This document shows, piece by piece, positions 1-21,641 of a stretch of 21,641 nt of DNA. A program made the translations under genes and the position numbers. The stretch lies in UHGV virus genome UHGV-1847494. One strand, given 5' to 3'. Position 1 is the stretch's first letter. The number at the start of each line of letters is the position of its first letter. The notes beneath the pieces are model-generated. The model had not been told where the DNA came from and searched no databases. It worked only from the letters and a program-made list of their open reading frames with translations. The stretch comes from a virus.

Positions 1-86
1 TATATGGCTGATTTATAATTGTGAGTTTAATATTATGTTGACTCACTCATTGATCCAATACCTAACTTTACCAGCAACCCCTCCGT

Positions 87-121
87 CCCCAGTAGCACTG
101 GCTGCTGGGGTGCGTTTTATT
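87..121 (+). terminator. Putative rho-independent terminator upstream of the ParB-like gene
   Basis: Inverted repeat ccccagtagc / gctgctgggg (10-bp stem with one G.U pair, loop actg) at 87-110, followed by tgcgttttatt. Seen directly in sequence; function inferred. Confidence 0.45.
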
Positions 122-137
122 CATAAAGCAAGGCTGT

Positions 138-929
138 ATGAGCGAGAAATTAAAGATAGTCTATCGCCCATTACAAGAATTGTCACCGTATGCGCACAAC
201 GCCAGGACGCACAGCCCTGAGCAGGTGGCACAACTGGTAGAAAGTATTAAGCAATTCGGCTGGACTAATCCGGTGCTGATTGACGAAAAGGGCGAAATTA
301 TTGCGGGTCACGGTCGTGTTATGGCGGCTGAAATGCTCAAAATGGATTCTGTTCCGGTCATTGTTCTGTCTGGCCTGACGGATGAGCAGAAAAAGGCGTA
401 CCGCCTGGCAGATAATCGCCTGCCGATGAATGCTGGCTGGGATGAAGATCTGTTGCGGATGGAGCTGTCGGACCTAATCAATGCTGATTTTGATGTCTCC
501 CTGACAGGCTTCATCCCGACAGAAATTGATGAACTGTTGACGGATGTTTTGCCCGGTACAGGAAATGAGGAGGAGCCGTATACGACGAAAATTGATACGC
601 CTGTTTATGAGCCGTCGGGCGGTAAACCGGATATCAGTGAACTGTACGACGATACGAAAACTCAGGAGCTGATCAGCCGGATACGTTCGGCGTCCCTTGA
701 GCCTGATATTGAGAAATTCCTCCTGTGTGCGGCAGAACGTCACACGGTGTTTAATTTCAGCAGAATTGCGGACTATTACGCTCACGCCCCCTCTGAAATT
801 CAGTGTTTTTTCGAGGAGTCGGCGCTGGTGATCATTGATTATCAGCAGGCTATTGAAAATGGATTTGTCCGGATGACGCAGCGCATGGTGGAGATCATGC
901 ATGGTGGTGAGGAGGAGGAATATGCGTGA
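138..929 (+). CDS. ParB/Srx-like nuclease-domain protein (ParB N-terminal domain), C-terminal ~150 aa uncharacterised
   Basis: 263-aa ORF. The N-terminal 90 aa follow the ParB N-domain pattern (LxPYxxNxRxH ... EIIAGHGRVMAA ... VPVIV ... LADNRL). Sits immediately upstream of the terminase genes, a common position for ParB-like genes in lambdoid phages. Recognition is from memory of the family, not a search. Confidence 0.8.
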   Translation: MSEKLKIVYRPLQELSPYAHNARTHSPEQVAQLVESIKQFGWTNPVLIDEKGEIIAGHGRVMAAEMLKMDSVPVIVLSGLTDEQKKAYRLADNRLPMNAGWDEDLLRMELSDLINADFDVSLTGFIPTEIDELLTDVLPGTGNEEEPYTTKIDTPVYEPSGGKPDISELYDDTKTQELISRIRSASLEPDIEKFLLCAAERHTVFNFSRIADYYAHAPSEIQCFFEESALVIIDYQQAIENGFVRMTQRMVEIMHGGEEEEYA

Positions 930-1854
930 TGATTTTTGCGCCTTTATTCTGACTCACGGGCGACCGGACAAAGTTCTGACTTACCGGACGTTGCGTCGTG
1001 CTGGCTATACCGGGAAAATTTTTATCGTTGTTGATGATGAAGATAAGACACGGAATCAGTACATGGCTGAATTTGGTGAACAGGTGCTGGTGTTTTCCAA
1101 AGCCGATATCGCCAGTCGTTTTGACGAAGCCGATAATTTCTGTGACCGCCGCTCAATTTTTTACGCCCGTAATGCCTGTTTCGACCTGGCAAAACTGGTC
1201 GGGTGTAAATACTTCATTCAGCTCGATGATGATTATCACGAGTTCCAGTTTCGGGTGGATCGCAACTATGACCAGGCCTATTTTCCGATAAGGAAACTGG
1301 ATGCGATCCTTTCTGAAATGCTGGCGTACTACGAATCAATACCTGCTCTTTCCATCGCTATGTCGCAGGGCGGGGATTTTCTTGGTGACAATGGCGGCCA
1401 TGCTTCGTGGGTGAAACGCAAGGCAATGAACAGCTTTATCTGTTCGGTTGATCGACCGTTCTCATTCATGGGGCGCATTAACGAGGATGTGAATACGTAC
1501 ACGAATCTCGGTCGCTGTGGTGAATTGTTTATGACGATCGGTGCTGTCCAGTTAGGGCAGAAACAGACGCAGAAAAACAGCGGCGGAATGACCGAGCTGT
1601 ATCTGGATTCCGGAACCTACGTTAAAAGTTTTTACTCCGTCATGTATGCGCCGTCGTGCGTAAAAATCTCACTGATGGGTGCCAGCCATAAACGCATTCA
1701 CCATCAGGTCACCTGGAACAACGCTGCAGTAAAAATCCTTCACGAAAAATACAGGAAGAAGACACCCTGCATATCAATGGGGGTGACAAATGATTCCGTA
1801 TTCGAAAGTCGAGTCTCTGGCAGCGTGCCGGATGACTGCACAACAAATCGCTGA
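922..1854 (+). CDS. Hypothetical protein, translationally coupled to the ParB-like gene; possible GT-A-like nucleotide-sugar transferase fold (speculative)
   Basis: Strong SD GGAGGAGGA at 911-919 precedes ATG 922, so I prefer 922 over the track start at 901. The start overlaps the ParB stop (927-929) by 8 nt. Contains acidic motifs IFIVVDDEDK and YFIQLDDDYHEF that resemble a DxD motif. The fold assignment is inference only. Confidence 0.55.
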   Translation: MRDDFCAFILTHGRPDKVLTYRTLRRAGYTGKIFIVVDDEDKTRNQYMAEFGEQVLVFSKADIASRFDEADNFCDRRSIFYARNACFDLAKLVGCKYFIQLDDDYHEFQFRVDRNYDQAYFPIRKLDAILSEMLAYYESIPALSIAMSQGGDFLGDNGGHASWVKRKAMNSFICSVDRPFSFMGRINEDVNTYTNLGRCGELFMTIGAVQLGQKQTQKNSGGMTELYLDSGTYVKSFYSVMYAPSCVKISLMGASHKRIHHQVTWNNAAVKILHEKYRKKTPCISMGVTNDSVFESRVSGSVPDDCTTNR

Positions 1855-2041
1855 CGTTCTGGATGTTGATCTGAACCGACTGAAAGAAAATCGGGAAGCA
1901 ATGACAGATTTTTATGCGGCCATCCGTAAGGGCAGAGCGAAAGGTGAAGCCGAGTTACGAGCGGCATTGTTTAAGCTTGCCAGAAAAGGGGATGCCTTTG
2001 CTCTGCGCGAACTACTCAGGGTGGATAAAAATCAGGACTAA
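1790..2041 (+). CDS. Small putative HTH DNA-binding protein (83 aa)
   Basis: ORF preceded by GGGGGTGA 5 nt upstream of ATG 1790; overlaps the previous gene end by 65 nt. Basic helical sequence (IADVLDVDLNRLKEN ... KGRAKGEAELR) looks like an HTH. In the same frame as terS, separated only by TAA 2039-2041 plus 3 nt. Confidence 0.4.
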   Translation: MIPYSKVESLAACRMTAQQIADVLDVDLNRLKENREAMTDFYAAIRKGRAKGEAELRAALFKLARKGDAFALRELLRVDKNQD

Positions 2042-2044
2042 CTG

Positions 2045-3139
2045 ATGAGCAGACCGGACTGGGGGGCGTTGCAGCAGGAGTATATTGCTGAATACACCCG
2101 CTCCGGTATATCTCCGGTGGCATGGTGTGAAGCAAGGGGACTGAATTACGCAACAGCCCGTCGTTACATCAAAAAAACTCCGAAAAATGCGCAGACAGAA
2201 ATGTGCAAAACTGCGCAAAAAAGTGCGCAGAAAAAATCTGCGCAGACTGCACAAAAGCGGAACGAAAAATCTCAGGAAAAAAAGCCAGTATTCGATGCGG
2301 GCCTGAATGAGGGCGACGCGGAGGAATTTTCGTTCTGTCCCGATGAATTCGGCATTTCTGACCAGCAGGCTAAGTTTGCGATGCTTGTTGCTCAGGGTAA
2401 AAAGCCGACAGAGGCGTACCGACTAGCCGGTTATGAGGGGCAAGGTGCGACAGCTAACAGCAACGCCAGTCGTATGCTTAGAAATGCCAGGGTTTTTCGC
2501 GCTATCAGCTACTTCCGCAATCAGTACCAGAAACGCTATACCGCAGACCTGGATTTACTAGTGAGTCAGTTGATGGCTATTGTCCTGGCCGACCCCAATC
2601 AGCTTGCACAATTTCGCCGTGTTAACTGCCGTTATTGCTGGGGCGAGAATCATCTCTACCAGTGGCGCGATATAGCAGAATTCGACAAGGCAGCGGCGCA
2701 GGCTTCCAGAGATGGCAAACCCGAACCGGAATATGGAGGCCTCGGCTTTGTTGATAACGCCATACCCAATCCGGACTGCCCGAAGTGCTGCGGTGAGGGA
2801 ACGGGACAGCTTTATATGGCTGATACCACTCTGCTTGATGGGGATGCGCGGCAATTATATGCAGGGGCAAAATTCGGAAAATTCGGCGTTGAGATCCTGC
2901 TGGAGGATAAGGCTGCCGCCCGGCGTGAATTGTTGCGTTTGCTTTCTGCTGGCGGGGATTTATGTGCAGATAAGCGGCTACAGGAACTGGAAATTGAACG
3001 GCGCAGAATGGAAAACCAGAAGCTGCGCAAAGAGATCGAAACGGTGGAAGATAATGAACATCCCCAGCCTGTGGCGATCAATATTAATGTGGTTGATGCC
3101 AGAGTAAGGAGTGATGAAGATGATCTCTCCGACGCTTAA
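2045..3139 (+). CDS. Terminase small subunit (Terminase_2-like core), unusually long with Cys4 zinc-ribbon-like motif and C-terminal coiled coil
   Basis: 364-aa ORF directly upstream of the terminase large subunit. Central segment QQAKFAMLVAQGKKPTEAYRLAGYEG...NASRMLRNARV resembles the HTH core of small terminases. CRYC ... CPKCC motifs lie at about nt 2626-2800. The basic C-terminus is rich in R/E/L (LQELEIERRRMENQKLRKEIE). Confidence 0.7.
   Translation: MSRPDWGALQQEYIAEYTRSGISPVAWCEARGLNYATARRYIKKTPKNAQTEMCKTAQKSAQKKSAQTAQKRNEKSQEKKPVFDAGLNEGDAEEFSFCPDEFGISDQQAKFAMLVAQGKKPTEAYRLAGYEGQGATANSNASRMLRNARVFRAISYFRNQYQKRYTADLDLLVSQLMAIVLADPNQLAQFRRVNCRYCWGENHLYQWRDIAEFDKAAAQASRDGKPEPEYGGLGFVDNAIPNPDCPKCCGEGTGQLYMADTTLLDGDARQLYAGAKFGKFGVEILLEDKAAARRELLRLLSAGGDLCADKRLQELEIERRRMENQKLRKEIETVEDNEHPQPVAININVVDARVRSDEDDLSDA
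2185..2256. repeat. Periodic TGYGCA / A-tract repeat inside terS (candidate pac site or terminase binding array)
   Basis: TGCGCA at 2188, 2212, 2224 and 2239; TGTGCA at 2202; TGCACA at 2248. Spacing is 9-15 bp (about one helical turn), interleaved with A4-6 tracts. Encodes the low-complexity AQ/K-rich linker of TerS. Confidence 0.4.
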
Positions 3140-3164
3140 TGTGCCTCAGGCGCGATTTCTTTCA

Positions 3165-4469
3165 ATGCCCCATAAATTTAAAGCAGATCGGAAGAGCGTC
3201 GTGTAGGGAAAGAGTGTAGATAAATTTAAAGCCTATATTGCTGGTTTTGGCTCGGGCAAAACATGGGTTGGGTGTGGCGGCATATGCAAGGGGATTTGGG
3301 AGCATCCAGGTATAAATCAGGGATATTTTGCGCCAACGTATCCCCAAATTCGCGATATTTTTTACCCTACAGTGGAAGAAGTTGCTGCTGACTGGGGATT
3401 GAACGTAAAAATTAATGAGGGAAATAAAGAGGTTCACTTTTATTACGGACGCCAGTATCGGGGAACCACTATCTGCAGATCGATGGAGAAGCCACAAACG
3501 ATCGTCGGTTTCAAAATTGGTAATGCGTTGGTGGATGAACTGGACATTTTGCCGAAGGAAAAAGCCAGAACGGCGTGGCGCAAGATAATTGCGCGTATGC
3601 GTTATAAGATTGATGGACTTCGCAACGGTATTGACGTTACAACCACGCCGGAAGGATTCAAATTTGTCTACGAGCAGTTTGTTAAAGCCGTGCGTGAAAA
3701 AACAGAGCTGGCCTCACTGTATGGTCTGGTGCAGGCATCTACTTTCGATAATGAAAAGAACCTGCCAGCAGATTACATTCCTTCGCTTCTTGAATCATAC
3801 CCTCCAGAGCTGATTAAAGCCTATCTGCGAGGACAGTTTACTAACCTGACAAGTGGTACTGTTTACCATCAGTTTGACCGGAAACTGAATAATTGCGAAG
3901 AAGTGGAGCAGCCAGGGGAGCCGATTTATATTGGGATGGATTTTAACGTTGGAAAGATGGCGGGAATCGTCCATGTGCTGCGTTTGGGGCTTCCATGTGC
4001 GGTAACTGAAATCATCAATGCCTACGATACGCCGGATATGATCCGCATCATTAAAGAACGCTTCTGGCTGTATGATGGGAATGATTACCGGAAAGTGAGG
4101 GAAATTTATATTTATCCAGATGCTTCCGGGGATTCCAGAAAATCAAGTAACGCAAGTACGACGGATATAGCCCAGCTTAAGCAGGCTGGTTTTAACGTTG
4201 TGGTGAACAGCTCGAACCCGCCAGTAAAAGATCGCGTTAACTCAATGAATGCAATGTTCTGCAATGCCAATGGTGAGCGTCGCTATAAAGTTAATGTGAA
4301 GCGTTGCCCGTTATATGCCGAATCTCTGGAGCAACAGGTCTGGGATGAGAAGGGGGAGCCTGATAAAAAATCTGGCAATGATCACCCGAATGATGCCGGA
4401 GGTTATTTCATCGTTAAGCAATTCCCTATTGTCAAACCGACCGGAAGAGTCACATCACTTCGGATTTAA
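3165..4469 (+). CDS. Terminase large subunit (ATPase/nuclease); 5' end interrupted in this assembly by the adapter-derived insertion carrying an in-frame TAG at 3204-3206
   Basis: Walker A motif KFKAYIAGFGSGKTW is encoded at 3222-3266, upstream of the track start at GTG 3372 and in the same frame. No ATG/GTG/TTG lies between the TAG and the Walker A. Removing one repeat copy plus the adapter (48 nt) restores ATG 3165 with N-terminus MPHKFKAYIAGFGSGKTW. The uninterrupted frame as given is 3207..4469. Confidence 0.8.
3185..3221. other. Illumina TruSeq universal adapter sequence (reverse complement), an assembly or library artifact
   Basis: agatcggaagagcgtcgtgtagggaaagagtgtagat is an exact 37-nt match to the reverse complement of the TruSeq universal adapter 3' end. 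It is flanked by a duplicated genomic 13-mer ATAAATTTAAAGC (3172-3184 and 3220-3232). The antisense translation gives the adapter-signature peptide LSLHDALPI (track ORF 3162..3497, minus strand). Confidence 0.93.
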
Positions 4470-4471
4470 TT

Positions 4472-5878
4472 ATGGCTGATATATCAACACCCAACCTCGA
4501 CTATAACGATATGCTGGAGGCGTGGGATATTAACGACGCACTGATGGGCGGTACGCTTGAAATGCGCAGGCAGGGGGAAAATTATCTCCCAAAATGGCCT
4601 AACGAAGATGAAGACGCTTATAAAAAACGCCTGTCTGTGGCTACGCTACTTCCTGTGTATGAAGAAAGCATCAAGCAAAATATTGGGCGCATATTTGCAG
4701 AGCCGACAGTATTGAGTGAGGAAACGCCGGCAAAAATCAGGGAATATGCAGAAAATATCGACATGGAGGGAAGCCGACTGGATGTGTGGGCGCAGCAATT
4801 TTTCAGCCTCGCATTTCAGTATGGTGTGGCACATGCGCTGGTGGACTATCCACGAACGGATATGAAAGAGATTCGGACAAAAGCCGATGAAAACGCGGCC
4901 GGTAGTCGTCCGTACGTTACGATGCTGAATCCACGCCAGGTTATTGGATGGAAATCGAAAGTTGAAAAAGGGAAAGTTGTTCTCACTGATTTGCGTATAA
5001 AAGAGGTCATCATTATTGATGGTGATGATTTCGGGCAGAAGAAGGTGGAGCAGATCCGCCATATTATGCCCCGTCGAGTTGAAATTTATCGACGTAGCGA
5101 AGGCACTAATGGCGAATCTGTCTGGACGCTTCATGAGTCATGGAATACCAGCCGTGATGATATTCCTCTGGTAACACTGTACACGAAGAAAACAGGATTT
5201 ATGCGTGGTACACCGCCATTGCTTAATCTTGGCTTGCTGAATATCAAGCACTGGCAAAGCCAGAGCGAGCAGGACAATATTCTTCATGTTGCCCGCGTTC
5301 CATTGCTGGTGGCCTACGGGCTGGACAGGAATGAAGAACTGACGGTTGGTGCATCCACCGCTACGATTTTTGAGGACAGAACAAAAAATGGCCTCGAATA
5401 TGTTGAACATAGTGGCGCAGCGATAGAATCTGGCGAAACATCACTTGAGAAGCTGGAAAATCAGATGCGTCATGCCGGCGCTAAACTTCTGCGTGCTGAA
5501 AATACATCCACCAAATCTGTTGATCAGACTAATGAAGAGCGAATGCAGGAAAACTCGCCGCTTTATACAATGGCGAACTCCCTCGAAGATGCCCTCGATA
5601 ATATTCTCCAGATAATGGCGGAATGGATCGGAGAGAGTTGCGGTGGCAATGTGGATGTGCGCACTGAACTGGATGTATCTGCCCAGGTGTTTGACTCATC
5701 CTCCGCGCTGGCTGTTCAGTCATTGCGTCAGGGCGGTGATATACGTCAGATTGATGCGATTCGGGTGTTGCAGGCGTTGAAATTTATCGATCAGGATTCC
5801 CGTCCAGAGGAAGTGATCGATGAATTAAAAAATCAGAGTGTAATGCTGATGGAAATCAATGATGCAAACCGTGAATGA
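4472..5878 (+). CDS. Portal protein (putative)
   Basis: 468-aa ORF immediately after terL (ATG 3 nt after the terL stop) and before the Mu F-like head morphogenesis gene. Size and synteny fit a portal; I do not recognise a specific motif. Confidence 0.65.
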   Translation: MADISTPNLDYNDMLEAWDINDALMGGTLEMRRQGENYLPKWPNEDEDAYKKRLSVATLLPVYEESIKQNIGRIFAEPTVLSEETPAKIREYAENIDMEGSRLDVWAQQFFSLAFQYGVAHALVDYPRTDMKEIRTKADENAAGSRPYVTMLNPRQVIGWKSKVEKGKVVLTDLRIKEVIIIDGDDFGQKKVEQIRHIMPRRVEIYRRSEGTNGESVWTLHESWNTSRDDIPLVTLYTKKTGFMRGTPPLLNLGLLNIKHWQSQSEQDNILHVARVPLLVAYGLDRNEELTVGASTATIFEDRTKNGLEYVEHSGAAIESGETSLEKLENQMRHAGAKLLRAENTSTKSVDQTNEERMQENSPLYTMANSLEDALDNILQIMAEWIGESCGGNVDVRTELDVSAQVFDSSSALAVQSLRQGGDIRQIDAIRVLQALKFIDQDSRPEEVIDELKNQSVMLMEINDANRE

Positions 5879-6974
5879 ACGGCTGCGTGATGAATCAATT
5901 GCTCATGCAGTCTGGATATCCCGCTATAGCACTGGCGTGGCTGCCAGAATGGTGAAAATACTGAATGACAGCGATGCGGAACTTACTGCTCGCCTGCTGA
6001 TAGCACTGGACAGCCTCGATCCAGGTAGTTTTACCGTTAAGCGCCTGGAGTCACTTCTGGCGAGCGTCAGAGAGGTTAACCGCACTGCTATTAACAGCAT
6101 GTTTACCAGTCTCTCCGGAGAGCTGAACGAGCTGGCAATTTATGAGGCTGGTTATCAGTTAAGTCTGTTTGATTCTATGCTACCTGATTTTGTTGCTGAT
6201 GTTCACCCTCTGGTTGGTATCTCTCCTGATGCACTTTATGCCGCTGCAATGGCGCGACCATTTCAGGGACGACTGCTCAGTGAGTGGGCCTCAGATCTTG
6301 AGGCGGATCGGCTCAGACGCATAACAAATACAGTGCGTCAGGGTTTTTTGCTGGGGGATACCAATGAGCAGATCGCAAGAAAAATTCGGGGACATGTCAG
6401 TAAGGGATTTCAGGATGGTGCATTGCAGATGAGCCGGGCTAATGCGGCCAGCATTGCAAAAACAGCGGTTGGACATCTTGCTGCTACTGCCCGTGAGAGT
6501 TTTGCCAGCGCGAATAATGATTTGATTAAGGGTAAGCAATGGTTATCAACGCTTGATAATCGTACTACGCCACAATGTCGAATCAGGGATCGCCTCAAAT
6601 ATACGCTGAATAATAAACCTGTAGGTCACAGCGTGCCTTATTTGCAGGGGCCGGGAAAAATTCATTTCTGCTGCCGCTCAACGGAAACGTTCATTCTGAA
6701 ATCAGCGAAGGAACTGGGTATTGATGTTCGCGATATTTCCCCGGCTGAGCGGGCCAGCATGGATGGCGTGGTGGCCGGAGATACAACCTACAGGGAATGG
6801 TTTTTGCGTCAGCCTTACACCAGACAAAAACAGATTGTGGGGGAAACCCGAGCAAAGCTGATTCGGGATGGTGGTATGTCGCCAGATGAATTTTACACCG
6901 ATAAAGGCGAATGGCTGACGCTGAAGCAGCTCCGTGAGCGTGATGCACAGGTATTCAGAAAAGCAGGGATTTAA
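5859..6974 (+). CDS. Head morphogenesis protein (Mu F / SPP1 gp7-like minor head protein)
   Basis: 371-aa ORF overlapping the portal gene end by 20 nt. Position after the portal and overall sequence character fit the Mu F-like family. Family assignment is from memory. Confidence 0.7.
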   Translation: MMQTVNERLRDESIAHAVWISRYSTGVAARMVKILNDSDAELTARLLIALDSLDPGSFTVKRLESLLASVREVNRTAINSMFTSLSGELNELAIYEAGYQLSLFDSMLPDFVADVHPLVGISPDALYAAAMARPFQGRLLSEWASDLEADRLRRITNTVRQGFLLGDTNEQIARKIRGHVSKGFQDGALQMSRANAASIAKTAVGHLAATARESFASANNDLIKGKQWLSTLDNRTTPQCRIRDRLKYTLNNKPVGHSVPYLQGPGKIHFCCRSTETFILKSAKELGIDVRDISPAERASMDGVVAGDTTYREWFLRQPYTRQKQIVGETRAKLIRDGGMSPDEFYTDKGEWLTLKQLRERDAQVFRKAGI

Positions 6975-6993
6975 ATAAATCATTTATTACAAC

Positions 6994-7018
6994 AGGCTAC
7001 CTTCGGGTGGCCTTTTTT
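6994..7018 (+). terminator. Intrinsic terminator with cUUCGg tetraloop after the head morphogenesis gene
   Basis: aggctacc-ttcg-ggtggcct (8-bp stem with one G.U pair, UUCG loop) followed by T6 at 7013-7018, 20 nt after the stop codon. Confidence 0.65.
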
Positions 7019-7078
7019 ATTGCTGCGATCCGGATGGTGAGCAGCGTAACTGTCGGAAGACTTAAACCAGGTACTAAT

Positions 7079-7843
7079 ATGAAACTGAAAACGGTCGAGA
7101 TTAACGGAAAACAATACGCAGAAATTGATACTGCTGGCCTGCCAGTTTATGTGCACGACGATGGTAAAGAAATTGGCTTCGATGCACCGCTGGCGACAAA
7201 AAAAATTACAGAGCTTAATAGCGAGGCAAAAAATCATCGCCTGGCTAAAGAAGCTGCAGAGGAAAAACTGGCTAAGTTTGCCGCTATCGAAGACCCGAAG
7301 AAGGCGATCGAGGCACTGGAAATGCTGTCAAAAATCGACCAGAAAAAGCTGCTCGATGCGGGACAGGTTGACCAGGTTAAGGCAGAAATTACGAAAAATT
7401 TTCAGCAGCAATTAGATGAAGAAAAGCAACGCTCTCAGATGCTGGAGAAGCAGCTTTACGATTCTATGATTGGCGGTAGTTTTGCGGGTTCAAAATATAT
7501 TGCCGATAAAATTGCGATCCCGGCAGATTTATTACAATCACGCTTCGGGCAGGCATTCAAAGTGGAAGAAGGGAGGATCGTTGCTTATGACGCTTCCGGC
7601 AACAAAATTTATTCCCGCGCGAAGCCTGGCGAACTGGCGCAGTTTGATGAGGCGCTGGAGTTCCTTGTCGAAAATTACCCTCAGAAAGACTACATCCTGA
7701 AAGCCAGTGGCAACAATGGCGGCGGCTCCCGTCCGACACAGCATGATATTGGTCAGAAAACGATGAAACGCTCTGCTTTTGATGCACTGGATGTTGCAGG
7801 TAAGCAAAACGCATTGAAAGACGGTATCACAATCGTTGATTAA
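7079..7843 (+). CDS. Head scaffolding protein (putative)
   Basis: Preferred start is ATG 7079 (MKLKTVEING...). The track start at 7007 would overlap the upstream terminator. Acidic, helical, coiled-coil-like sequence located between the head morphogenesis and major capsid genes. Confidence 0.55.
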   Translation: MKLKTVEINGKQYAEIDTAGLPVYVHDDGKEIGFDAPLATKKITELNSEAKNHRLAKEAAEEKLAKFAAIEDPKKAIEALEMLSKIDQKKLLDAGQVDQVKAEITKNFQQQLDEEKQRSQMLEKQLYDSMIGGSFAGSKYIADKIAIPADLLQSRFGQAFKVEEGRIVAYDASGNKIYSRAKPGELAQFDEALEFLVENYPQKDYILKASGNNGGGSRPTQHDIGQKTMKRSAFDALDVAGKQNALKDGITIVD

Positions 7844-7941
7844 CACATTTGTCAGCTTCCGGATGGGAGCTGGTGTCAGGGCTGGATAGCTCATTACTCC
7901 ATCTATTCACAATTACGCAAATTTTTAAGGAATATTTAATT

Positions 7942-17089: not shown

Positions 17090-17833
17090 ATGACACAGAC
17101 AGAATCAGCGATTCTGGCGCACGCCCGGCGATGTGCGCCAGCGGAGTCGTGCGGCTTCGTGGTGAGAACGTCGGAAGGGGAAAGATATTTTCCCTGCGTG
17201 AATATCTCCGGTGAGCCGGAGGAGTATTTCCGGATGTCGCCGGAGGACTGGCTGCGGGCAGAGATGCAGGGTGAGATTGTGGCGCTGGTCCACAGCCACC
17301 CCGGTGGTCTGCCCTGGCTGAGTGAGGCCGACCGGCGGCTGCAGGTGCAGAGTGATTTGCCGTGGTGGCTGGTCTGCCGGGGGACGATTCATAAGTTCCG
17401 CTGTGTGCCGCATCTTACCGGGCGGCGCTTTGAGCACGGTGTGACGGACTGTTACACCCTGTTCCGGGATGCTTATCATCTGGCGGGGATTGAGATGCCG
17501 GACTTTCATCGTGAGGATGACTGGTGGCGTAACGGCCAGAATCTCTATCTGGATAATCTGGAGGCGACGGGGCTGTATCAGGTGCCGTTGTCAGCGGCAC
17601 AGCCGGGCGATGTGCTGCTGTGCTGTTTTGGTTCATCGGTGCCGAATCACGCCGCAATTTACTGCGGCGACGGCGAGCTGCTGCACCATATTCCTGAACA
17701 ACTGAGCAAACGAGAGAGGTACACCGACAAATGGCAGCGACGCACACACTCCCTCTGGCGTCACCGGGCATGGCGCGCATCTGCCTTTACGGGAATTTAC
17801 AACGATTTGGTCGCCGCATCGACCTTCGTGTGA
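17090..17833 (+). CDS. K: Tail tip assembly protein K (lambda gpK-like; JAMM/MPN plus NlpC/P60-like)
   Basis: Contains the JAMM motif HSHPGGLPWLSEAD at about 17290-17335. An SD-proximal ATG at 17234 would give a 199-aa product, matching the lambda K size I recall, but the frame is open and protein-like from ATG 17090 (247 aa). The upstream start is preferred on domain grounds. Confidence 0.75.
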   Translation: MTQTESAILAHARRCAPAESCGFVVRTSEGERYFPCVNISGEPEEYFRMSPEDWLRAEMQGEIVALVHSHPGGLPWLSEADRRLQVQSDLPWWLVCRGTIHKFRCVPHLTGRRFEHGVTDCYTLFRDAYHLAGIEMPDFHREDDWWRNGQNLYLDNLEATGLYQVPLSAAQPGDVLLCCFGSSVPNHAAIYCGDGELLHHIPEQLSKRERYTDKWQRRTHSLWRHRAWRASAFTGIYNDLVAASTFV

Positions 17834-18402
17834 AAACGGGGGCTGAAGCCATCCGGGCACTGGCCACACAGCTCCCGGCGTTTCGTCAGAAACTGAGCGA
17901 CGGCTGGTATCAGGTACGGATTGCCGGGCGGGACGTCAGCACGTCCGGGTTAACGGCGCAGTTACATGAGACTCTGCCTGATGGCGCTGTGATTCATATT
18001 GTTCCCAGAGTCGCCGGGGCCAAGTCAGGTGGCGTATTCCAGATTGTCCTGGGGGCTGCCGCCATTGCCGGATCATTCTTTACCGCCGGAGCCACCCTTG
18101 CAGCATGGGGGGCAGCCATTGGGGCCGGTGGTATGACCGGCATCCTGTTTTCTCTCGGTGCCAGTATGGTGCTCGGTGGTGTGGCGCAGATGCTGGCACC
18201 GAAAGCCAGAACTCCCCGTACACAGACAACGGATAACGGCAAACAGAACACCTATTTCTCCTCACTGGATAACATGGTTGCCCAGGGCAATGTTCTGCCT
18301 GTTCTGTACGGGGAAATGCGCGTGGGGTCACGCGTGGTTTCTCAGGAGATCAGCACGGCAGACGAGGGGGACGGTGGTCAGGTTGTGGTGATTGGTCGTT
18401 GA
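17731..18402 (+). CDS. I: Tail tip assembly protein I (lambda gpI-like)
   Basis: 223 aa with a Gly/Ala-rich hydrophobic segment. Overlaps K by 103 nt in a different frame, as I recall for lambda K/I. Confidence 0.85.
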   Translation: MAATHTLPLASPGMARICLYGNLQRFGRRIDLRVKTGAEAIRALATQLPAFRQKLSDGWYQVRIAGRDVSTSGLTAQLHETLPDGAVIHIVPRVAGAKSGGVFQIVLGAAAIAGSFFTAGATLAAWGAAIGAGGMTGILFSLGASMVLGGVAQMLAPKARTPRTQTTDNGKQNTYFSSLDNMVAQGNVLPVLYGEMRVGSRVVSQEISTADEGDGGQVVVIGR

Positions 18403-18420
18403 TGAAAAACGTTTTATGTG

Positions 18421-18441
18421 AAACCGCCTCAGGGCGGTTTT
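18421..18441 (+). terminator. Terminator-like hairpin between I and J
   Basis: aaaccgcc-tcag-ggcggttt (8-bp perfect stem, 4-nt loop) followed by ttttgtcgttt, 20 nt upstream of the J start. Confidence 0.5.
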
Positions 18442-18462
18442 GTCGTTTCTGGAGCGTGAGGA

Positions 18463-21400
18463 ATGGGTAAAGGCAGCAGTAAGGGGCATACCCCGCGCGA
18501 AGCGAAGGACAACCTGAAGTCCACGCAGATGCTGAGCGTGATAGACGCCATCAGTGAAGGGCCGATTGAAGGTCCGGTGGATGGATTAAAAAGCGTGCTG
18601 CTGAACAGTACGCCGGTGCTGGACAGTGAGGGGAATACCAATATCTCCGGCGTCACGGTGGTGTTCCGGGCAGGTGAGCAGGAGCAGACACCGCCGGAGG
18701 GATTTGAATCCTCCGGCTCCGAGACGGTGCTGGGTACGGAAGTGAAGTACGACACGCCGATTACCCGGACCATCACGTCTGCAAACATCGACCGTCTGCG
18801 CTTTACCTTCGGTGTGCAGGCACTGGTGGAAACCACCTCAAAGGGGGACCGGAATCCGTCGGAAGTCCGCCTGCTGGTTCAGATACAGCGTAACGGTGGC
18901 TGGGTGACGGAAAAAGACATCACCATTAAAGGCAAAACCACCTCACAGTATCTGGCATCGGTGGTGGTGGGTAACCTGCCGCCGCGCCCGTTTAATATCC
19001 GGATGCGCAGGATGACGCCGGACAGCACCACAGACCAGCTGCAGAACAAAACGCTCTGGTCGTCATACACTGAAATCATCGATGTGAAACAGTGCTACCC
19101 GAACACGGCACTGGTCGGCGTGCAGGTGGACTCGGAACAGTTCGGCAGCCAGCAGGTGAGCCGTAATTATCATCTTCGCGGGCGCATTCTGCAGGTGCCA
19201 TCGAACTATAACCCGCAGACGCGGCAATACAGCGGTATCTGGGACGGGACGTTTAAACCGGCATACAGCAACAACATGGCCTGGTGTCTGTGGGATATGC
19301 TGACCCACCCGCGCTACGGCATGGGGAAACGTCTTGGTGCGGCGGATGTGGACAAATGGGCGCTGTATGTCATCGGCCAGTATTGCGATCAGTCAGTGCC
19401 GGATGGCTTTGGTGGTACGGAGCCGCGCATCACCTGTAATGCCTGGCTGACCACACAGCGTAAGGCGTGGGATGTGCTCAGTGATTTCTGTTCGGCGATG
19501 CGCTGTATGCCGGTATGGAACGGGCAGACGCTGACGTTCGTGCAGGACCGACCGTCGGATAAGGTGTGGACCTATAACCACAGTAATGTGGTGATGCCGG
19601 ATGATGGCGCGCCGTTCCGCTACAGCTTCAGCGCCCTGAAGGACCGCCATAATGCCGTTGAGGTGAACTGGATTGACCCGAACAACGGCTGGGAGACGGC
19701 GACAGAGCTTGTTGAAGATACGCAGGCCATTCTCCGTTACGGTCGTAACGTCACGAAGATGGATGCCTTTGGCTGTACCAGCCGGGGGCAGGCGCACCGC
19801 GCCGGGCTGTGGCTGATTAAAACGGAACTGCTGGAAACGCAGACCGTGGACTTCAGCGTGGGTGCCGAAGGGCTTCGCCATGTACCGGGCGATGTCATTG
19901 AAATCTGTGATGATGACTATGCCGGTATCAGCATCGGTGGTCGCGTGCTGGCGGTGAACAGCCAGACCCGGACGCTGACGCTCGACCGTGAAATCACGCT
20001 GCCATCCTCCGGTACCACGCTGATAAGCCTGGTTGACGGGCAGGGTAATCCGGTGAGCGTGGAGGTCCAGTCCGTCACCGACGGCGTGAAGGTAAAAGTG
20101 AGCCGTGTTCCTGACGGCGTTGCCGAATACAGCGTGTGGGGGCTGAAGCTGCCGATGCTGCGTCAGCGCCTGTTCCGCTGTGTGAGTATCCGTGAGAACG
20201 ATGACGGCACGTATGCCATCACTGCCGTGCAGCATGTACCGGAAAAAGAAGCCATCGTGGATAACGGGGCGCACTTTGACGGCGACCAGAGCGGCACGGT
20301 GAATGGTGTCACGCCGCCAGCGGTGCAGCACCTGACTGCCGAAGTCACCGCAGACAGCGGGGAATATCAGGTACTGGCGCGCTGGGACACGCCGAAGGTG
20401 GTGAAGGGCGTGAGCTTTATGCTTCGCCTGACCGTGGCAGCGGATGACGGCAGTGAGCGGCTGGTCAGCACGGCCCGGACGACGGAAACCACATACCGCT
20501 TCACGCAACTGGCGCCAGGGAACTACAGGCTGACAGTCCGGGCGGCAAATGCCTGGGGGCAGCAGGGCGATCCGGCGTCGGTATCGTTCCGGATTGCCGC
20601 ACCGGCAGCGCCGTCGCGGATTGAGCTGACGCCGGGCTATTTTCAGATAACTGCCACGCCGCATCTTGCGGTTTATGATCCGACGGTACAGTTTGAGTTC
20701 TGGTTCTCGGAAACGCGGATTACCGATATCAGGCAGGTTGAAACCACAGCCCGCTATCTTGGCACGGCGCTGTACTGGATAGCCGCCAGTATCAATATCA
20801 AACCGGGCCGTGATTATTATTTTTACATCCGCAGTGTGAACACCGTTGGCAAATCGGCATTTGTGGAGGCTGTTGGCCAGCCGAGTGATGATGCATCCGG
20901 CTATCTGGATTTTTTCAAAGGAGAGATAGGGAAAACCCATCTGGCTCAGGAGCTGTGGACGCAGATTGATAACGGTCAGCTTGCGCCTGACCTGGCTGAA
21001 ATCAGGACGTCCATTACGGATGTCAGCAATGAAATCACGCAGACCGTCAATAAGAAACTGGAAGACCAGAGTGCGGCAATTCAGCAGATACAGAAGGTTC
21101 AGGTTGATACAAATAATAACCTGAACAGCATGTGGGCTGTGAAGCTGCAGCAGATGCAGGACGGACGCCTTTATATCGCGGGTATTGGTGCCGGTATTGA
21201 GAACACCCCTGACGGCATGCAGAGTCAGGTGCTGCTGGCGGCGGACAGGATTGCGATGGTTAATCCTGCGAATGGCAACACAAAGCCGATGTTTGTTGGT
21301 CAGGGCGATCAGATATTCATGAACGAAGTGTTCCTGAAATATCTGACGGCTCCCACCATTACCAGCGGCGGTAATCCTCCGGCATTTTCCCTGACACCGG

Positions 21401-21641
21401 ACGGGCGGCTGACGGCGAAAAATGCCGATATCAGCGGTAGCGTGAATGCGAACTCCGGGACGCTCAACAACGTCACGATTAACGAGAACTGTCGGGTTCT
21501 GGGAAAACTGTCCGCGAACCAGATTGAAGGCGATCTCGTTAAAACAGTGGGCAAAGCTTTCCCCCGGGACTCCCGTGCACCGGAGCGGTGGCCATCAGGG
21601 ACCATTACCGTCAGGGTTTATGACGATCAGCCGTTTGACCG
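18463..21641 (+). CDS. J: Central tail fiber / host specificity protein J (lambda gpJ-like), 5' partial: runs off the window end
   Basis: Not in the ORF track because no stop occurs before the window end. ATG 18463 is preceded by GAGG. Translation [54 protein letters not shown] matches the lambda J N-terminus as I recall it. The frame stays open for about 1059 codons. Confidence 0.9.

Follow-up and report, generated by a model that had tools for sequence, protein, structure and literature searches.

An internal Illumina adapter, very probably an assembly artefact, gives a prophage terL gene the appearance of a pseudogene

Introduction

The closest described precedent for the sequence analysed here is the contamination of assemblies by adapters that sit at the extremities of contigs, breaking them, and that originate from untrimmed read-through reads (Moeller et al. 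2024, BMC Genomics, PMC11536531). The present case involves the same adapter (AGATCGGAAGAG together with CGTCGTGTAGGGAAAGAGTGT) and the same orientation, in which genomic sequence runs into the ligation end of the adapter, and presumably the same cause. It departs from that precedent in its position and in its surroundings: the adapters reported in PMC11536531 are found at contig ends, whereas this one is internal, is followed by collinear genomic sequence and has 13 nt of its flank duplicated.

The window, by which we mean the whole stretch of 21,641 nt that was analysed, comes from a lambdoid prophage that occupies the E. coli trkG (Rac) locus. It covers only part of the prophage, from a ParB-like gene to most of J, and so speaks for the large terminase subunit gene (terL) and not for the overall intactness of the element. 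Within terL there are 48 extra nucleotides, which an earlier note on this DNA had explained by an adapter that entered the assembly and makes an intact gene look like a pseudogene. We put the probability that the 48 nt are a sequencing or assembly artefact, and that terL is really intact, at roughly 0.93; such an origin is very strongly indicated by the sequence comparisons described below rather than demonstrated by them.

Results

Adapters in public sequences

The contig-end pattern of PMC11536531 was reproduced by scans of the GTDB representative genomes (using the 37-mer) and of IMG/VR (using a 28-mer), for which all counts are among the matches listed. The adapter was located no more than 200 nt from the end of a contig or stretch in 251 of 256 occurrences (129 from GTDB and 127 from IMG/VR). 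Each of the 129 GTDB matches listed is directed outward and is at most 144 nt from a contig end; the adapter extends to the very last base of the contig in 78, which makes a truncated tail of this kind the commonest form. For IMG/VR, 122 of the 127 matches listed are within 200 nt of the end of the stretch and the remaining five are internal, none of these five being accompanied by a duplication of its flanks. Two of the IMG/VR contigs (L209 and L266) contain a full adapter with poly-A at an internal position. Another (IMGVR_UViG_3300045988_159093; L218:1142-1215), a viral contig of 38.8 kb, has in its middle two adapter tails arranged head to head around the adapter's own palindrome, AGATCT; this probably represents two contig ends joined via their adapters.

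A search of 5426 complete E. coli genomes, which requires an exact shared word of 28 nt, returned a single adapter match, in strain AREA_R485 (NZ_CP123349.1:702311-702338; L147:1501-1528), where 28 nt of the same adapter lie inside fliI. The adapter takes the place of 13–15 native bases and lengthens the gene by a net 13 nt, the flanks are not duplicated, and PGAP annotates the gene as a 'frameshifted' pseudogene. This case resembles the terL of the window in that the same adapter lies within a conserved gene of an otherwise normal chromosome and gives rise to an annotated or apparent pseudogene. The two differ in that AREA_R485 loses native bases and shifts frame, whereas the window loses none, duplicates 13 nt and keeps the frame while gaining a stop codon. 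Adapters do occur internally, if rarely, and the particular layout found in the window, an adapter with a duplicated flank, is without a second example in this sample.

Composition of the insert

The earlier note had recorded an exact 37-nt adapter match at positions 3185–3221, and this was borne out together with all of its coordinates: the segment AGATCGGAAGAGCGTCGTGTAGGGAAAGAGTGTAGAT is identical at 37 of 37 positions to the reverse complement of the TruSeq universal adapter. The exact-match screen of the window that had been proposed as a check was run and gave this one match. There is no second copy in the window even when up to 3 mismatches are tolerated, nor is there within the window any match longer than 12 nt to another adapter, to Nextera or to PhiX. 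The chance expectation for a 37-nt adapter match is 2.3e-18 (analytic), and no adapter match was obtained in 100 dinucleotide shuffles of the window. The identity begins at the ligation end of the adapter (AGATCGGAAGAGC...), which comes straight after genomic ...AAAGC in the usual orientation relative to the left flank, and it extends as far as the first mismatch at adapter position 38. Instead of pointing outward from the end of a contig, as adapter contamination typically does, the match is internal (3185 of 21641), lying 3.2 kb and 18.4 kb from the two ends, and the genome resumes after it.

On either side the adapter is adjoined by the genomic 13-mer ATAAATTTAAAGC, which starts at 3172 and at 3220 and has no further copy in the window, so that the duplication described in the earlier note is real. 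The complete order is ...TTTCAATGCCCC ATAAATTTAAAGC AGATCGGAAGAGCGTCGTGTAGGGAAAGAGTGTAG ATAAATTTAAAGC CTATATTGCTGG..., and the total of extra material at the terL site is 48 nt. The dinucleotide AT at 3220–3221 ends the adapter match and also opens the right-hand 13-mer, and it is counted in both, which means that the foreign core comprises 35–37 nt. The features of the locus are collected in Table 1.

A perfect 13-nt direct repeat that bounds an insert and is single-copy in relatives is also what would be expected of a miniature mobile element with a 13-bp target-site duplication, and IS or transposon insertions do share with the window a flanking direct repeat of the target. Here the likeness ends. 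The 35-nt core lacks terminal inverted repeats (AGATCGG... versus ...GTGTAG), lacks a transposase or indeed any coding capacity, has no other copy in the window and is identical to a laboratory oligonucleotide, the Illumina adapter. Transposition with target-site duplication was rejected on these grounds, and we regard a mobile element as excluded.

Table 1. Coordinates of the features at the interrupted terL locus (window positions).
Feature	Position	Strand	Remarks
terS, small terminase subunit, intact	2045..3139	+	Pfam Terminase_2; PGAP on the identical L001 and L131 sequence
Shine-Dalgarno sequence AAGGAG	3106..3111	+	8 nt upstream of ATG 3120; read from the sequence
terL, interrupted by the 48-nt putative artefact	3120..4469	+	PGAP start and stop in L001 and L131 map here
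Spurious antisense ORF	3162..3497	-	TTG start, 111 aa; reads through the adapter
Left copy of the genomic 13-mer ATAAATTTAAAGC	3172..3184	+	Relatives have a single copy; alignments stop at 3184
Adapter match, TruSeq universal (P5-side), reverse complement	3185..3221	+	37 nt, exact
TAG stop codon in the terL frame	3204..3206	+	Adapter-derived; adapter frame 2, DRKSVV*
Right copy of the 13-mer ATAAATTTAAAGC	3220..3232	+	Alignments resume at 3220
Walker A / P-loop GFGSGKTW of TerL	3243..3266	+	Separated from the start codon by the insert
Longest ORF left by the putative artefact	3372..4469	+	GTG start, 365 aa
Natural terL alleles (window-equivalent positions)	3318-3320, 3358-3363		L004, L009, L010; L003, L007, L008; NZ_AP024112.1

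The same locus in related genomes

Homologues of the interrupted region are abundant. A 1.2-kb query centred on the site finds matches in 874 of 5426 complete RefSeq E. coli genomes, and among the best matches listed it is split, mostly in two, and spans 1153 nt as opposed to 1201 nt in the window (48 fewer). A shorter query of 86 nt across the junctions matches 783 of the 5426 genomes; none of these 783 reaches at least 80% coverage of the query, and each match among those listed spans 38 nt, which is 86 minus 48. Comparison with homologous prophages had been suggested in the earlier note with the expectation of a 48-nt gap, and exactly that gap was found: the alignment with two complete genomes and eight further public contigs shows one clean gap of 48 columns, with the 13-mer present as a single copy. 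In blastn comparisons the alignment is interrupted at the positions given in Table 1 for every one of the 12 fetched loci overlapping the site, with an overlap of 13 nt in the subject. The insert is absent from the homologous locus of relatives. E. coli NR3736 (NZ_AP040205.1) is 100.000% identical to the window over 1–3184 and has 0 mismatches over 3233–16000, such that the 48 nt are the sole difference within positions 1–16000.

Beyond this region, from 16000 to 21641, the tail genes L, K, I and J of the window have 227 mismatches and small indels relative to NR3736. Lambdoid prophages with quite different head modules share its gpI allele, a distribution across head types that, judged from the sequences, indicates mosaic recombination in the tail-tip region; mosaic relatives of this allele were found, with no identical record. 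The first position of the window lies exactly one base past the stop codon of trkG, and at the other end the last 301 nt of the repeated gpJ gene are missing. It looks like a provirus cut at a gene boundary on the left and at a contig break inside the repeated J on the right, and the latter suggests a fragmented short-read assembly.

These comparisons also bear on whether the 48 nt entered the sequence in silico once it had been assembled, through pieces being concatenated or edited by hand or as an intentional spike-in. The left junction (33 nt), looked for by exact match, is absent from the IMG/VR and JGI metagenome contigs, and the phage records of INPHARED give multi-piece matches only, none of which fits the window end to end in one piece. 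The absence of the junction from these collections and from the 5426 E. coli genomes would be consistent with such an edit, as would the absence of adapter-spanning ORFs from a collection of 15 billion proteins and the status of the insert as the only difference across 1–16000. The rest of the window, however, is a natural mosaic variant, identical to none of the records compared, with a genuine and independent backbone, and duplicated overlapping ends arise naturally from real joins. We consider an edit of this kind improbable.

Other features of the prophage were noted along the way. Upstream of terS, a gene for a ParB_N-domain protein (138–929) overlaps one for a TET-associated glycosyltransferase (901–1854; Pfam TAGT, 8.4e-35), and the pair may constitute a DNA-modification module. 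In the identical sequence of NR3736, PGAP gives only a 258-nt partial 'ynaK' pseudogene despite an open ORF of 263 aa. The head-tail module is present in GenBank at 98–99.7% identity in Salmonella phage SPF_0923 (ON032529.1) and in the records of Escherichia phage vB_EcoS-... (ON470581-ON470616), and the existence of phage records with the same module hints that this type of prophage may produce particles.

The interrupted and the repaired terL

As the sequence stands, the terL ORF is split at the adapter-derived TAG, since an insert of 48 nt keeps the reading frame but brings in an in-frame stop. No ATG, GTG or TTG occurs in frame between this TAG and GFGSGKTW. The account given in the earlier note, with a TAG in the terL frame, a Walker A box deprived of an upstream start and a GTG at 3372 as the first in-frame start, is correct. 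The 365-aa ORF that begins at this GTG lacks the Walker A motif and approximately the first 50 positions of the Terminase_6N profile, which it enters at position 52 (Pfam).

Deletion of the 48 nt restores the reading frame and yields a gene of 1302 nt encoding 433 aa. The repaired protein is identical at 433 of 433 residues to RefSeq WP_000625348.1, differs at one residue from WP_104858274.1 and is 100% identical to the TerL encoded in the record of Salmonella phage SPF_0923. Pfam assigns to it both Terminase_6N (3.6e-33, profile positions 3–213 of 215) and Terminase_6C (3.3e-10). After removal of the 48 nt, a Walker A ATPase and a C-terminal RNaseH-like nuclease are thus combined in one ORF, as in T4-like TerL proteins. 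In addition, the conserved sequence P-Q-x-x-F is present upstream of Walker A; it may be the Q motif, the adenine-binding element of terminase ATPases. Residues G26, G28, G30 and K31 of the P-loop are invariant among TerL homologues.

The earlier note had also stated that removing the 48 nt restores a clean start at ATG 3165. The frame is indeed restored, whereas the start codon is a different one. PGAP starts terL at the equivalent of ATG 3120, 45 nt upstream of ATG 3165 and in the same frame, so that the true start is overlapped by terS over 20 nt. Phage TerL proteins matched by tblastn at 40–55% identity begin at residues 1–6 of the query, and phage homologues at 24–55% identity align from residues 2–6 of the repaired TerL. 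Three residues encoded upstream of 3165 (P9, Q10 and F13) are invariant in four homologues, from Vibrio, Shigella, Salmonella and a cyanophage. The start at ATG 3165 was rejected, the PGAP start, the spacing of AAGGAG and the conservation of P9, Q10 and F13 all favouring ATG 3120. On the sequence, terL is really intact and has a predicted product of 433 aa. The central claim of the earlier note, that an adapter in the assembly makes an intact terL look like a pseudogene, is supported by the gap relative to homologues, by the insert being the sole difference and by the RefSeq-identical protein.

The adapter also creates an ORF on the opposite strand. Its translation contains ...IYTLSLHDALPICFKFMGH, in which IYTLSLHDALPI is the forward-strand frame 1 of the adapter, and the adapter peptide reported in the earlier note was duly found in it (...TLSLHDALPI). 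All four start variants of this adapter-spanning antisense ORF are absent from the collection of 15 billion proteins, and no literature on the peptide 'LHDALPI' was found. The antisense ORF is a mechanical ORF and not a gene.

Naturally broken alleles of the same gene

In some other strains the terL gene of the Rac-locus prophage is truly broken. The nonsense allele Q51* (CAG to TAG) is found in three assemblies, including the complete chromosome AP027619.1, and a frameshift in which T6 becomes T7 is found in three contigs. A T5 variant and a C4-to-C3 variant each occur once, the former in a contig with several other split genes, and the T5 variant may be a sequencing error. The terL of one strain carries an IS1A insertion. 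The exact 365-aa product with the GTG start has been called, for alleles naturally broken upstream of that GTG, in 81 blocks of a public gene collection. Eight loci were read of the 24 contigs with this product; all eight have natural mutations and none contains an adapter. PGAP, applied to the CAG-to-TAG allele of NZ_AP027619.1, reports a pseudogene with an 'internal stop'.

These alleles affect the same N-terminal region of the same gene as the window does and lead to the same outcome, namely the 365-aa GTG ORF or a pseudogene with an 'internal stop'. The truncation at GTG 3372 or the pseudogene call that the earlier note predicted for gene callers is, by analogy with them, supported. The nature of the lesion differs: the natural alleles are ordinary mutations or IS insertions, some of them common to several assemblies, whereas that of the window is synthetic and unique to it, and is not the natural, heritable change that makes a genuine pseudogene. 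The warning in the earlier note that it would be wrong to call the prophage defective on account of terL therefore holds for the terL of the window and does not extend to other strains, in which truly broken alleles exist.

The natural alleles also bear on whether the insertion could truly be present in the bacterial DNA, making terL a true pseudogene in this strain. Inactivation of terL elsewhere (by Q51*, the T6-to-T7 slip or IS1) makes its loss plausible in principle. But the natural lesions are point mutations, homopolymer slips or IS elements and never an adapter, the inserted bases are those of an exact synthetic oligonucleotide (a chance of about 2e-18), and the insertion is carried by 0 of the 783 genomes that match the junction. 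We regard a real insertion as excluded for practical purposes.

A model for the origin of the insert

The two junctions are unlike one another. On the left, genomic sequence is followed by AGATCGGAAGAGCG..., as given by a read 2 when the library insert is shorter than the read. On the right, the adapter ends 35–37 nt in and is directly followed by genome, an arrangement which TruSeq ligation cannot produce and which resembles the point where a read runs out. Genomic sequence picks up again on the same strand, 13 nt upstream of the break. Such a collinear, same-strand rejoin 13 nt upstream is expected from two pieces tiling one locus, and a chimera with a random partner in a 5-Mb genome has odds of about 1e-5 of hitting the same locus.

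From these features we infer a read-through origin followed by an end-to-end join. A short library fragment ending in ...ATAAATTTAAAGC would have been sequenced past its end, its Illumina read 2, left untrimmed, continuing into the P5-side adapter; an assembled piece (contig, tip or flank from local reassembly) would then have kept the 35–37 adapter bases at its 3' end. A second piece, the next one along this locus, would start 13 nt upstream of the end of that fragment, and joining the two end to end, with their 13-nt overlap unrecognised, would generate the order 13-mer, adapter, 13-mer. In this model the left piece, and with it the library fragment, would end at the left copy of the 13-mer, and the right piece would start at the right copy. 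The join could have been made during scaffolding, gap closure, bridging, concatenation or polishing, or by a person. As a result, ATG 3120 and the N-terminal P-Q-x-x-F would be parted on paper from Walker A by the TAG in adapter frame 2. We think it rather likely that the join of two overlapping pieces is the specific origin of the insert. Three considerations count against it: the internal position is atypical of adapters in the public data, the six other internal adapters lack a flank duplication and, to our knowledge, 13 nt is an overlap that corresponds to no usual k-mer size.

In a related route, within the same class of artefact, untrimmed short reads would have been used to polish a long-read draft or to reassemble it locally (a Pilon-type 'fix'). 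The complete genome of AREA_R485 shows that adapters can enter finished assemblies internally, and the homopolymer-rich insertion site (CCCCATAAATTTAAAGCC) is of the kind at which long-read drafts err and polishers reassemble. The footprint in AREA_R485 is nevertheless a different one, with 13–15 native bases replaced and no flank duplication, and the termination of the window, apparently within the repeated gpJ, is more easily reconciled with a fragmented short-read assembly than with a long-read one. We consider polishing possible but not likely.

Alternatively, a physical chimeric library molecule, formed by PCR template switching or aberrant ligation, might have been assembled faithfully. 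A de Bruijn path through the adapter needs k-mers across both junctions, which a real molecule would supply, and there are public contigs with an adapter at an internal position (L209, L218, L256 and L266). Yet the right junction is not of the ligation type, with a truncated adapter leading into genome in an orientation foreign to TruSeq ligation; re-entry at the same locus and on the same strand 13 nt upstream has the long odds given above for a random partner; and a single molecule would normally be outvoted by normal coverage. We attach little weight to a chimera. Chimera, polishing and in silico editing are all possible explanations, and all three would still make the insert an artefact.

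Finally, we considered whether library DNA had been taken up by the strain and integrated into the prophage gene by a microhomology-type event that gave rise to the 13-bp duplication or, in a milder form, whether the layout is the systematic footprint of a joining step in many genomes. Both forms are very improbable. No second case of an adapter with a flank duplication was found among six internal adapters (five from IMG/VR and one from RefSeq E. coli), a small sample, and the idea of a common joining-step footprint is unsupported.

Discussion

The finding matters for data quality only: the insert is not a biological feature, and it opens no biological question. If the systematic footprint were true, many public genomes would carry similar false pseudogenes. 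Adapter screens that are restricted to contig ends, of which the end-trimming remedy of PMC11536531 is one, miss internal adapters such as this. Annotation of the sequence as it stands would output a 365-aa TerL without Walker A, possibly together with a spurious antisense protein containing the adapter-derived peptide, and an annotator or a prophage-completeness tool would score the prophage as being without a functional large terminase.
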